Virus record (IMG/VR): IMGVR_UViG_2778261635_000007
Location: 1 to 3,295 of that record
DNA length: 3,295 nucleotides
Direction: 5' to 3' (one strand)
From: a virus
Lineage: Duplodnaviria > Heunggongvirae > Uroviricota > Caudoviricetes
Positions 1 through 3,295 of the stretch are shown here, one piece after another. How positions within the stretch are numbered: the first letter of the stretch is position 1; each line of letters opens with the position of its first letter. The position numbers and the translations under genes were made by a program. The notes under the pieces are model-generated. The model searched no databases. It worked only from the letters and a program-made list of their open reading frames with translations, and was not told where the DNA came from.

Positions 1-486
1 GTGGGTGTCGGCATTCCGGCATGTTCCTGTTTAGATGATCCAGGCGCATACAAAGCTGGTTATGCAATCTGCCGTTCTGCAGATTTTAACTCATGGGAAT
101 ATGTGCCAGACCATCGCGGTGAAATCATCTATAGCACCGAAACAGGAGAATCGAAAGAAATCACAGCTCCGGGTGATTACCCTGATAATACAACCACTAT
201 CGCCCCGTTAACGCCATATGATAAATGGGATGGTGAGAAATGGGTGACGGATACTGAGGCACAGCATAGTGCCGCAGTAGACGCGGCAGAAGCAAAGCGC
301 CAGTCACTGATTGATGCAGCAATGGCTTCCATTAGTCTGATTCAGCTGAAATTACAGGCCGGGCGGAAACTGACGCAGGCAGAAACAACCCGGCTTAACG
401 CTGTGCTGGATTACATTGACGCGGTGGCGGCAACAGATACCAGCACCGCGCCGGATGTCATCTGGCCTGAACTGCCGGAGGCGTAG
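1..486 (+). CDS. Phage tail fibre assembly protein (Tfa/U family), 5' end outside the window; copy in the currently expressed orientation
   Basis: Frame 1 is open from the window edge to TAG at 484-486. The translation ends in DTSTAPDVIWPELPEA, the C-terminal motif shared by lambda/e14/Mu-type tail fibre assembly proteins, and contains an SWEYVPDHRGE block resembling the Tfa N-domain. The GTG at position 1 is very unlikely to be the real start; the true start is probably 80-100 nt upstream. Confidence 0.8.
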   Translation: MGVGIPACSCLDDPGAYKAGYAICRSADFNSWEYVPDHRGEIIYSTETGESKEITAPGDYPDNTTTIAPLTPYDKWDGEKWVTDTEAQHSAAVDAAEAKRQSLIDAAMASISLIQLKLQAGRKLTQAETTRLNAVLDYIDAVAATDTSTAPDVIWPELPEA

Positions 487-895
487 GCCATTCAATATCT
501 GGCGCACCGGAAGTATCGACCAGTTCCAGTGCGTCCAGATAATCCAGCCATAAATTATATTGTTCCAGCTCGTCACCTTTCAGACGACCAATAGCAGCTT
601 TGCCGGGCCATTGTTTACTGTTCATGTATTCGTTGGCCTGATTAATTAATAGCTGTCTTTTTGACTCAGAAATTTCAATAAGTTCTTCATGCGTGGGTGA
701 AGGAATATCTGCCCACGCAGGCATTCCGTCTGCACCTGCAATACGTCGCTTACCCTGCGGAGGTGTCGCCATAAACGACTCGGCACGTCGGGTTTCAATA
801 TCTTTTGCATCATCAGGCCATGTGCCGGAATCGCGGTATACGGCCTCATTACCAGCCAGATAAAACGCATTTTTTTTAGCACTGTATTTGTACAT
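458..895 (-). CDS. Phage tail fibre assembly protein, alternative copy (145 aa) in the silent orientation
   Basis: 145-aa ORF ending in VDTSGAPDIEWPTPPAVQAR, the same Tfa C-terminal motif. Its ATG (895-893) lies 1 nt after the TAA (899-897) of the upstream tail-fibre module, suggesting translational coupling. It converges on and overlaps the + strand Tfa gene by 29 nt (458-486). Confidence 0.8.
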   Translation of the reverse strand: MYKYSAKKNAFYLAGNEAVYRDSGTWPDDAKDIETRRAESFMATPPQGKRRIAGADGMPAWADIPSPTHEELIEISESKRQLLINQANEYMNSKQWPGKAAIGRLKGDELEQYNLWLDYLDALELVDTSGAPDIEWPTPPAVQAR

Positions 896-896
896 A

Positions 897-1316
897 TTAT
901 TTCCCTACCGCAATCCAGAAAAATGAACTCATGCTGGCTACTGGTACTCCGCCCGCTGTTGGAATCATCAGATTTCGGACGCCGCATCCTAAATTAGTTA
1001 TCGTTGGCGCTGAAATTACTGGCGACTGAACTACGTTAGGAAGCGATACCTGCTGAGGACCAAATCCCACATACATCGGGTATGCAGAGAACGCGACAGG
1101 AAACGTAATAAAGACCTCTCCAGTTGATGATGGATTGGCTGTCCCCCACTGAATAATCAGACCTGACGGTAATTTTTGCCAGCCAGGGCTGGTCAGGCTG
1201 GATGTGAAGTTATTCATATCCGGTATCTGATTTTTCCCTGTCCCCACATTCCGTTTTGCCGCTTCTCCCAAACCAACGTTTATGAAAATGCAGAGATAAT
1301 GGCTAACTGGCATCAT
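897..1316 (-). CDS. Tail fibre protein C-terminal variable module (promoterless alternative host-specificity segment); the in-window ATG is probably not a real start
   Basis: ORF on the - strand whose frame runs through the crossover site at 1263-1288. The translation is Gly/Pro/Ser/Thr/Val-rich, typical of tail-fibre distal domains, and it is immediately followed by a Tfa gene. The arrangement matches the Sv' U' half of Mu G / P1 C / e14 P invertible segments. The functional protein would only be made after inversion fuses it to the constant 5' part of the fibre gene outside the window. Confidence 0.6.
1263..1288. other. Site-specific DNA inversion crossover site (hix/gix/cix/pix family), invertase-proximal copy
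   Basis: TTCTCCCAAACCAACGTTTATGAAAA is an imperfect 26-bp palindrome. It matches the recalled Salmonella hixL site (TTCTTGAAAACCAAGGTTTTTGATAA) at 20 of 26 positions, including the central AA dinucleotide, and sits 55 bp upstream of pin at the junction with the tail-fibre module. Confidence 0.7.
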
Positions 1317-1343
1317 CCCCGGTTTTTATTCAGGGGATTGATC

Positions 1344-1898
1344 ATGCTTATTGGCTATGTACGCGTGTCAACAAATGACCAGAACACCGATTTGCAACGT
1401 AGTGCGCTGAACTGCGCGGGATGTGAGCGGATTTTTGAGGATAAAATCAGCGGCACTAAGTCCGACAGACCGGGGCTGAAAAAACTGCTCAGGACATTAT
1501 CGGCAGGTGACACTCTGGTTGTCTGGAAGCTGGATCGGCTGGGGCGTAGTATGCGACATCTGGTCATTCTGGTTGAGGAGTTGCGCGAACGAGGCATCAA
1601 CTTTCGTAGTCTGACTGATTCAATTGATACCAGCACACCAATGGGACGCTTTTTTTTCCATGTGATGGGTGCCCTGGCTGAAATGGAACGTGAACTGATT
1701 GTTGAACGAACAAAAGCAGGACTGGAAGCTGCTCGCGCACAGGGACGAATTGGTGGACGACGTCCCAAACTTACACCAGAACAATGGGCACAGGCCGGAC
1801 GACTAATTGCATCAGGAGCTCCTCGCCAGAAGGTGGCGATTATCTATGATGTTGGTGTGTCAACTTTGTATAAGAGGTTTCCGGTCGGAGATAAATGA
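1344..1898 (+). CDS. pin: Serine-recombinase DNA invertase (Pin/Gin/Cin/Hin family), 184 aa
   Basis: ATG at 1344 preceded by AGGGGA (1332-1337) with a 6-nt spacer; TGA at 1896-1898. The N-terminus MLIGYVRVSTNDQ carries the catalytic Ser of small serine recombinases, and a C-terminal helix-turn-helix-like region (GAPRQKVAIIYDVGVSTLYKRF) follows. Near-identical, from memory, to E. coli e14 PinE. The longer ORF from 1176 in the track is an upstream in-frame extension without a ribosome-binding site. Confidence 0.92.
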   Translation: MLIGYVRVSTNDQNTDLQRSALNCAGCERIFEDKISGTKSDRPGLKKLLRTLSAGDTLVVWKLDRLGRSMRHLVILVEELRERGINFRSLTDSIDTSTPMGRFFFHVMGALAEMERELIVERTKAGLEAARAQGRIGGRRPKLTPEQWAQAGRLIASGAPRQKVAIIYDVGVSTLYKRFPVGDK

Positions 1899-2160
1899 AA
1901 CCGTAGCACGTCGTATGCAAGAACGTGCCACGGCTGGCTGATGGACGTTCGATAGCGCGAGTTTGAATGAAAATCAGCCGGAGATGATTTTACATAATTG
2001 CTACGGAATTATTCAATACAGGAATTGCTTGTGTCTGCATGGATTGACCTGAAATAGTCCCGAAAATTTCTCTAAAAAACCCGAAAAAAATGGTAACTAA
2101 TTGAATGTATTAATATGTAATGGTACGTGTTAGGGATTAAAAGATGAGCATGAATTTATT

Positions 2161-2173
2161 TAACGCATTGATT
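2161..2173 (-). promoter_or_regulatory. Candidate IHF binding site in the att arm
   Basis: TAACGCATTGATT matches the reverse complement (YAANNNNTTGATW) of the IHF consensus WATCAANNNNTTR at all defined positions, about 30 bp from the att core. The consensus is degenerate and the region is AT-rich, so a chance match is possible. Confidence 0.25.
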
Positions 2174-2195
2174 CTAAAAAATTTTGTTGCTTGTT

Positions 2196-2228
2196 GACGA
2201 AAACAGGAATCGTGTTCGGTCTCTTTTT
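2196..2228 (+). terminator. Hybrid (partly degenerate) intrinsic terminator derived from the SdsR terminator
   Basis: Left arm GACGAAAAC (2196-2204), 7-nt loop AGGAATC, right arm GTGTTCGGTC (2212-2221), then TCTTTTT (2222-2228). The stem has one bulge and one mismatch, whereas the native SdsR hairpin as I recall it is a perfect 10-bp stem. Confidence 0.45.
2203..2228 (+). ncRNA. sdsR: 3'-terminal fragment of the SdsR (RyeB) sRNA, a partial copy acting as prophage attachment core; the SdsR body is absent
   Basis: ACAGGAATCGTGTTCGGTCTCTTTTT matches the recalled 3' end of E. coli SdsR (ACAGGAATCGTATTCGGTCTCTTTTT) with one mismatch. The about 80 nt upstream is AT-rich and does not resemble the GC-rich SdsR body, so this is a displaced 3' end rather than the intact gene. 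Confidence 0.55.
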
Positions 2229-2362
2229 ATCTGTTAAAAGCCAGAAGCATTTCCTTCGCTGACTTTATAGTCAACCATAACACACACTCTACTGTCTGAG
2301 TCCAGCGTTTTTTAACATTCTTGTTAAGATTATGTGATCTTTAGCGCGGGAGGAAAATATTG

Positions 2363-3019
2363 ATGAAACAGCCTGCGCCCGTTTATCAGAGAATTGCGGG
2401 TCATCAATGGCGACATATCTGGCTTTCTGGCGATATACACGGTTGTCTTGAGCAGTTGCGCCGCAAATTATGGCATTGTCGTTTTGATCCGTGGCGAGAT
2501 TTACTTATCTCAGTGGGAGACGTTATCGATCGTGGGCCGCAAAGTTTACGTTGTCTGCAGTTACTGGAACAACATTGGGTTCGTGCGGTAAGAGGCAATC
2601 ATGAACAGATGGCGATGGATGCGCTGGCATCCCAGCAGATGTCTTTGTGGTTGATGAATGGCGGCGACTGGTTTATTGCGCTGGCAGATAATCAACAGAA
2701 ACAAGCGAAAACGGCGCTGGAAAAATGTCAGCATTTGCCCTTTATTCTTGAAGTACACAGCCGCACCGGCAAACATGTTATTGCTCATGCCGATTATCCA
2801 GATGATGTTTATGAATGGCAAAAGGACGTTGATTTGCATCAGGTCTTGTGGAGCCGCTCACGATTAGGTGAACGCCCAAAAGGGCAGGGAATTACAGGTG
2901 CTGATCATTTCTGGTTTGGTCATACACCGTTGCGACATCGCGTGGATATTGGCAACCTGCATTATATTGATACCGGTGCTGCCTTTGGGGGCGAACTGAC
3001 TCTTGTGCAATTGCAATAA
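2363..3019 (+). CDS. pphA: Serine/threonine protein phosphatase 1 (PPP-family, lambda-phosphatase-like metallophosphoesterase), 218 aa
   Basis: ATG at 2363 with GGGAGG at 2348-2353; TAA at 3017-3019. The metallophosphatase signature is present: GDIHG, GDVIDRG, GNHE. Length and sequence match my recollection of E. coli PphA/PrpA. The TTG at 2360 used by the ORF track is a less likely start. Confidence 0.85.
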   Translation: MKQPAPVYQRIAGHQWRHIWLSGDIHGCLEQLRRKLWHCRFDPWRDLLISVGDVIDRGPQSLRCLQLLEQHWVRAVRGNHEQMAMDALASQQMSLWLMNGGDWFIALADNQQKQAKTALEKCQHLPFILEVHSRTGKHVIAHADYPDDVYEWQKDVDLHQVLWSRSRLGERPKGQGITGADHFWFGHTPLRHRVDIGNLHYIDTGAAFGGELTLVQLQ

Positions 3020-3211
3020 TTAAAAATCACCGTACTCCTGCGCAGGTCGCCAGAAACCATCTATAAAATCCTCAATCGGAAAACAACCGCCCTGGCGGAT
3101 CCGTTGATCGCTCATAGAATGAAGACACTGCTGTTCCGTGTTGTAGACATCCACAACAATATCTTCACAACCGCCATCCAGGTAGCAAACAAAAAGTACC
3201 AGCGCGAACAT
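3020..3211 (-). CDS. yebW: Small conserved protein, probably YebW (63 aa); start uncertain, ORF is open to the window edge
   Basis: Convergent with pphA, with a stop codon abutting the pphA stop. Starting at the internal ATG (3211-3209) gives exactly 63 aa, the length I recall for E. coli YebW, which lies next to pphA. A GGGG motif sits 4-5 nt upstream of that ATG. The identification rests on synteny and length only; I do not recall the YebW sequence. Confidence 0.4.
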   Translation of the reverse strand: MFALVLFVCYLDGGCEDIVVDVYNTEQQCLHSMSDQRIRQGGCFPIEDFIDGFWRPAQEYGDF

Positions 3212-3295
3212 TTCATCCCCGAAGTGTGGTGCCGTACCGTTAAGTTTAGGAGAGATTTTACAACGGGGGAATAACCAGGACAAATAACCCGCCAT

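Follow-up and report, generated by a model that had tools for sequence, protein, structure and literature searches.

What kind of junction joins phage genes to the bacterial chromosome at positions 1899-2228 of the 3,295-nucleotide stretch of DNA analyzed here (the window), and what becomes of the small RNA gene at which the two meet? The last 26 nucleotides of sdsR (ryeB) in Escherichia coli K-12 (L001 1506-1531) are found unchanged at window positions 2203-2228 on the plus strand (ACAGGAATCGTGTTCGGTCTCTTTTT), where they make up the loop, the right half of the stem and the U-tract of the SdsR terminator. Host DNA follows directly, as the preliminary description had reported: the 26-mer and the next 134 nucleotides up to pphA show 0 mismatches in 160 nucleotides to K-12. 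An exact 26-nucleotide match that runs into 134 nucleotides of syntenic host DNA cannot be a product of chance. In the MG1655 annotation, sdsR occupies 1923104-1923207 on the minus strand and ryeA occupies 1923066-1923337 on the plus strand; mapped onto the window, the sdsR 3′ end (1923104) falls at 2228 and the RyeA 5′ end at 2266 on the minus strand. The host flank further comprises pphA itself, a serine/threonine phosphatase gene (2363-3019, plus strand; Pfam Metallophos) that is annotated as pphA in all matching genomes, and yebW (3020-3211, minus strand), which is placed by synteny with the K-12 annotation.

The position of the boundary is evident from a comparison of genomes. Window positions 2198-2360 are matched in 5426 of 5426 complete E. 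coli genomes, whereas the whole of 1899-2360 is matched in only 228, which indicates that host DNA begins at about 2198-2203. In alignment with the uninterrupted sdsR-pphA locus of K-12, a comparison that had been proposed beforehand, the identity runs from 2203 rightwards. The host/phage boundary is confined to 2198-2213, inside the last ~23-26 bp of sdsR. The SdsR body had been said to be missing upstream of this copy, and no full-length match is found in the window: an Rfam search of the whole window at E≤1 returned no SdsR (RF00111) match and only a sub-threshold 29-bit RyeA match on the terminator, and only sdsR nucleotides 70-100 were recovered when the window was compared with sdsR by blastn-short. 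For annotation, the 26-mer is best entered as the displaced B′ copy of an attachment (att) core and not as a second sRNA gene.

To the left of this copy, the phage modules end in 304 bp (1899-2202) that are AT-rich and non-coding, in agreement with the ~300 bp described earlier. The GC content is 36.8% in this segment versus 49% in the phage genes, and it holds no open reading frame of at least 40 codons except a mechanical 44-codon frame (1807-1941) that lies partly within the 3′ end of pin. The segment is phage-derived, sharing 85% identity with the DNA left of the attP core in PP818812.1, and it can be annotated as the P arm of the attachment site.

Reading the 26-mer as a displaced att core carried the expectation of a complete sdsR, with the core repeated in it, beside an integrase gene at the other end of the element. 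Such an arrangement is found in E. coli PEC422, whose identity with the window is 100% across 1899-2360 and 97% across 1262-3295. A 41.8-kb prophage sits there between yebY and pphA, and its yebY-side end carries a lambda-type tyrosine integrase gene, an excisionase gene and a complete sdsR. Full-length sdsR (118.1 bits) and ryeA (179 bits) are reached 130 bp past the integrase stop codon, and the core is repeated 41.8 kb left of the junction, where it forms the 3′ end of the full-length sdsR. A core copy is also present at the integrase-linked sdsR in L008 and L009. With an attL query that runs from sdsR through the P′ arm into the first part of int, we identified complete matches in 228 of the 5426 genomes, the same number as carry attR; thus ~4% of complete E. 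coli genomes have this prophage type, and the empty, uninterrupted sdsR-pphA site is found in 5191. The distance between attL and attR, examined in five lysogens, is 40-44 kb. A scan for the integrase in one genome per species detected two near-identical loci only, one in E. coli and one in Shigella. The window holds the attR side alone and the attL of its own genome is deduced from relatives; in these close relatives, every testable prediction of integration into the 3′ end of sdsR is borne out, and the integration is supported.

The junction could also be a true attR whose element, in the window's own genome, is degraded or a tandem remnant, with no intact int-sdsR end about 42 kb to the left. 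Decay does occur at the same site in a Shigella-like contig (IMGVR_UViG_2690316286_000019, hereafter L010), and the tail-fibre region of the window is 3-7% divergent from every complete genome, the best whole-window matches having only 93-97% identity across this part. However, attL and attR are equally frequent in complete E. coli genomes, their spacing in the lysogens checked is 40-44 kb, and all phage open reading frames in the window are intact. A remnant is therefore unlikely, and integration of an element with an intact integrase-proximal end is the reading that we prefer.

The identity of this element was addressed from its genes. The left part of the window encodes a tail-fibre assembly protein (1-486, plus strand; Pfam Caudo_TAP, 3.6e-32), whose gene lies in a Pin-invertible segment and may run off the left edge, a second, convergent tail-fibre assembly protein (458-895, minus strand; Caudo_TAP, 9.5e-29), an alternative tail-fibre C-terminal segment (897-1316, minus strand; Gp53-like_C, 7.5e-14) and the serine DNA invertase Pin (1344-1898, plus strand; Resolvase and HTH_7). 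The right inverted repeat of the invertible segment, the Pin crossover site TTCTCCCAAACCAACGTTTA, can be read directly at 1263-1288, and an inverted copy lies 1.8 kb away in PEC422. It had been suggested that the element is e14-like, that is, an e14-type phage, normally integrated at icd, that was retargeted to sdsR and is a mosaic. The cryptic prophage e14 of K-12 indeed has a pin invertase and an invertible tail-fibre/tfa module: Pin is 95.7% identical to e14 PinE, and window positions 1-625 and 1262-1899 are ~91% identical to e14 DNA. These are the only e14 matches in the window, though, and the similarity ends exactly at the pin stop codon. Outside the pin/tail-fibre module, the PEC422 prophage is almost without e14 DNA similarity, only 118 bp (75% identity) being matched, and its integrase shares 39% identity with IntE. 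The early genes of this prophage are Rac-like (recET, kilR, ralR/RalA, DicF and ydaT); in the late region, identity reaches 96% with the induced myophage vB_EcoM-611R5 and 81% with Salmonella phage SEN34. The suggestion thus holds for one module and fails for the element, which differs from e14 in its site, its integrase and all its other genes. On these comparisons, retargeting of an e14-type element is refuted for the relatives and appears highly improbable for the window. vB_EcoM-611R5 is absent among the close integrase matches; late genes and integration module can therefore be exchanged independently of each other, as is usual in temperate phages. The invertible segment (1-1316) carries two convergent tfa genes, and the tfa at 1-625 is inverted relative to that of K-12 e14.

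We further sought the uninterrupted phage site from which the junction would have been formed. PP818812.1 contains at 45978-46431 an attP in which both arms are joined through the same core: DNA with 85% identity to window 1906-2229 leads, in one piece, into the P′ arm of the PEC422 attL and from there into an integrase 99.4% identical to that of PEC422. All four sites can accordingly be aligned, with attB as GACCGAATACAGGAATCGTgTTCGGTCTcTTTTTATCTG, attP as GAC-GAAAACAGGAATCGTaTTCGGTCTtTTTTTAATTG, attL as B-O-P′ (attB left of the core, attP right) and attR, in the window, as P-O-B′ (attP left of the core, attB right). The sequence ACAGGAATCGT (2203-2213) is the same in attB, attP, attL and attR and is bounded in the window by a phage-type A at 2202 and a host-type G at 2214, from which it follows that strand exchange took place within these 11 bp. 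In SdsR, ACAGGAATCGT corresponds to the 7-nucleotide terminator loop AGGAATC plus 2 bases on each side. The stem halves that flank the loop form an imperfect inverted repeat in attB and likewise in attP, the phage attP having a near copy of the SdsR terminator hairpin (GACGAAAACAGGAATCGTATTCGGTCTTTTTTT); E. coli attB and the phage core differ at two positions, both in the B′ half. Left of the core, a degenerate left half of the terminator stem (2196-2202, plus strand), with phage-derived GACGAAA replacing host GACCGAAT, is evident in the same four-way alignment. Because attP does hold this near copy, the 26-mer might be thought a phage-borne terminator mimic brought beside pphA by rearrangement or by an assembly chimera, a scarcely credible reading that the diagnostic bases of the window refute, the copy being host-type at both G2214 and C2222, continuing into 134 nucleotides of perfect host sequence and recurring at the same junction in 228 independent complete genomes.

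The equal numbers of attL and attR and the fit of the att alignment both uphold the displaced core. We conclude that 1899-2228 is almost certainly the attR (P-O-B′) of a temperate phage, a SEN34-like myovirus whose early genes are Rac-like, integrated at the sdsR terminator. The phage would enter by lambda-type site-specific recombination into the sdsR (ryeB) terminator hairpin, a heterobivalent tyrosine integrase exchanging strands inside the 11-bp ACAGGAATCGT, and the complete sdsR at the int/xis end would then finish in ...ACAGGAATCGTATTCGGTCTTTTTTT. Most likely, the loop AGGAATC is the 7-nucleotide overlap and the stem halves are the inverted core-type integrase sites, a layout well known from att sites in tRNA genes. 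For the E. coli sdsR site, the four att sequences are thereby mapped to the base; this map and the frequency of the prophage in E. coli are useful details and not a discovery.

PP818812.1 (L003 45978-47508) is titled "Actinobacillus phage vB_Apl-pPE4". The stated host is doubtful, since the record has an sdsR-type enterobacterial attP, an E. coli-like integrase and Rac-like genes. pPE4 shares its attP system with the window, as the near identity of its integrase to that of PEC422 also shows; it differs in a P arm that is only 85% identical, in another tail-fibre end and in having no pin. When the exact attP pattern was searched across viral contigs, the single match was L010. This match was considered as a free phage and rejected, the contig being a chromosomal tandem or degraded array. 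Over 440-3580, an sdsR that breaks off ahead of the terminator is followed by a truncated effector gene of the ipaH type (NEL and LRR) and a full-length CssrB (151.6 bits), after which the P arm leads through an attP-type junction into the P′ arm and int.

The recombination machinery resembles the Int-Xis-IHF systems of lambda and HK022. The PEC422 integrase has an arm-binding domain (PF09003; 29.7 bits with a cut-off of 22), a central domain and a catalytic domain (PF00589), and all six lambda catalytic positions are kept in the alignment (R212, K235, H308, R311, H333 and Y342). It is therefore a heterobivalent integrase of the lambda kind, the adjacent gene encodes Xis (PF07825), and int is transcribed towards attP, as in lambda. 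The integrase probably acts with IHF, and additionally with Xis for excision. Identity to the integrases of lambda, HK022 and e14 is nevertheless only 39-41%, and the arm motif here is C[CT]CGAAA, not that of lambda. The target also differs, being the terminator hairpin of an sRNA here and an intergenic gal-bio site in lambda.

Putative integrase sites are found in both arms. The motif C[CT]CGAA has 5 copies on the same strand in the 481-bp attP, compared with 24 forward and 18 reverse copies in the 47.5-kb phage. Relative to the core centre, the P arm has two repeats, at -149 and -128, and the P′ arm has a tandem run of three, at +56, +66 and +77. The five repeats are strongly enriched in attP, and we predict that they are arm-type sites; their 2 + 3 arrangement recalls the Int sites of lambda annotated as P1, P2 and P′1-3. 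The two in the window are a candidate P1-like site at 2059-2069 (CCCGAAAATTT) and a candidate P2-like site at 2080-2090 (CCCGAAAAAAA), both on the plus strand. A predicted IHF site in the P arm lies at 2161-2173 on the minus strand (AATCAATGCGTTA); it is the sole consensus match in the window (0.2 expected) and is without conservation in pPE4. A second predicted IHF consensus, in the P′ arm between the core and P′1, is kept in all three att copies examined, and its place next to the core is another point of likeness to lambda. AATACAGGAAT, a sequence overlapping that of the core, recurs in the P arm at 2015-2025, ~190 bp to the left of the core; this further copy is found in L010 and absent from pPE4, and is probably due to chance (blast E = 0.06).

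At its left end, the P arm takes part in a hairpin that follows pin. On the minus strand, a 14-bp hairpin at 1899-1935 is followed by UUUCAUUUAU, hairpin and U-rich tail together spanning 1889-1935, and its fold energy, its covariation and its match to CssrB make it a candidate terminator. The minus strand folds at -21.5 kcal/mol (z = -4.2), against z = -0.6 for the plus strand. Comparison of the window with pPE4 and HK97 shows covariation at three of its base pairs, and the series A-U, G.U and G-C works only on the minus strand. In Rfam, the hairpin corresponds to the 3′ end of CssrB; counterparts are found in L003 (45971-46007), L005 (~1505-1545) and L010 (2046-2080). In HK97 it lies just past the annotated sib site. 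A lambda sib site was considered for the P arm and is absent, the segment conserved in HK97 adjoining sib and not lying on it. It is plausible that the hairpin terminates leftward transcripts, including those of the ryeA promoter stranded at attR (see below), and it would in this way shield the late genes.

Integration divides the sdsR/ryeA locus between the two ends of the prophage. At attL, the SdsR terminator is composed of the host left stem, the core, and the phage right stem and U-tract. Its predicted fold (-15.8 kcal/mol) is as good as that of the K-12 terminator, with seven U at the end; the attL sdsR scores 118.1 bits with the Rfam model, versus 114.4 for K-12 sdsR. Judged by sequence and predicted fold, SdsR is intact at attL after integration. 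In the attL terminator (L002 6325-6360, compared with L001 1497-1531), a U-A pair stands for the U.G of K-12 and seven U for UCUUUUU. At attR, the terminator remnant, which consists of the phage left half-stem and the host loop, right stem and U-tract, shows no fold (z = 0.24).

RyeA, in contrast to SdsR, is disrupted. Its nucleotides 1-64, identical to those of K-12 ryeA, are stranded at attR and fused to phage DNA (2203-2266, minus strand). The ryeA promoter region, assigned from K-12 identity and the annotated ryeA 5′ end, lies at 2267-2310 on the minus strand and contains TGTTATGGT, an extended -10-like motif at 2275-2283. Both now face the phage P arm, and the other ~208 nucleotides of ryeA, among them the whole stretch complementary to the SdsR body, lie behind phage DNA at attL. 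In the P′ arm, TGATATAAC is also extended -10-like (L002 6445-6453, minus strand) and is 39 nucleotides farther from the sdsR 3′ end than TGTTATGGT is in K-12. Scans for consensus promoters and terminators detected nothing significant in the P arm, the ryeA promoter region or the P′ arm, the promoter scan making no call at 2267-2310.

SdsR and RyeA behave as a toxin/antitoxin-like sRNA pair, and in K-12, transcription of pphA is due largely to read-through that starts at the sdsR promoter. Once the phage is integrated, 42 kb of its DNA lie between that promoter and pphA. We tentatively propose, as a possibility that falls short of an even chance, that lysogeny rewires the SdsR/RyeA/pphA circuit of E. 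coli by four joint effects. The phage half of the terminator, with its U-A pair and seven-U tail, could improve SdsR termination and Hfq binding; the stranded ryeA promoter would yield a chimeric RNA of ~370 nucleotides ending at the minus-strand hairpin (1899-1935); TGATATAAC in the P′ arm would serve as a replacement ryeA promoter; and pphA would lose its sigma-S-dependent read-through expression. Given the toxin/antitoxin-like behavior of the pair and the reliance of pphA on the sdsR promoter, researchers on SdsR and RyeA have in these lysogens useful natural variants, in which the ryeA promoter is affected and pphA is uncoupled.

A related effect has been described in Salmonella, where, according to PMC7380047, which cites Balbontin 2008 (J Bacteriol 190:4075), lysogeny by PhiW104 is reported to change the 5′ end of ryeA, to reduce ryeA and to increase ryeB. 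By analogy, similar changes in RyeA and SdsR levels are likely in E. coli lysogens. In Shigella and Salmonella, SraC (RyeA) is reported to be ~35 nucleotides longer and to have an upstream -10 box (PMC3333887). The 39-nucleotide displacement of TGATATAAC fits this extra length, and TGATATAAC of the P′ arm could be the upstream sraC -10 box that explains the longer SraC.

The attachment site itself has precedents. The preliminary description named ryeA/ryeB as an insertion hot spot, which is a real one in Salmonella: PMC7380047, again citing Balbontin 2008, describes it so and places the PhiW104 att site within the last 23 bp of ryeB. PhiW104, compared here by that description only, agrees with the present element in an att site in the last ~23 bp of ryeB, internal to ryeA, in keeping sdsR and in replacing the 5′ part of ryeA; it differs in host, the present element residing in E. 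coli, with the two attB mismatches to the phage core noted above. ECO26_P14, a prophage of E. coli O26:H11 11368, is reported as "inserted at ryeB" (PMC7649339), and "RyeB" is a site label in the name of a Citrobacter prophage island, Cfr111.52.RyeB (PMC10111431). Both share the named site, in E. coli and Citrobacter respectively, and are likened to the present element by description alone. The window junction is thus another instance of the known sdsR/ryeB attachment site and is not conceptually new. When phages integrate at the 3′ ends of tRNA and tmRNA genes, attP reconstitutes the gene. The sdsR site is similar in that crossover takes place in a stem-loop with a 7-nucleotide loop and that the 3′ part supplied by the phage keeps the RNA gene functional, and it differs in that the target is the terminator of an Hfq-dependent sRNA overlapping an antisense gene, with ryeA disrupted as a result. 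Integration at tRNA and tmRNA genes is discussed in PMC3603311 with reference to Williams 2002.

Two further variants were observed at this site. In Shigella flexneri SFBU1023 (L008 2706-2850), the integrase-side sdsR is unusually divergent (81 bits), with several substitutions and deletions in its terminator, reflecting either real decay or sequencing error. In strain 17MR471 (NZ_CP051158.1; L011 4158-5358), the sdsR 3′ end and pphA are separated by ISApl1, an IS30-family element, and this disruption of the site is a non-phage insertion unrelated to the prophage.
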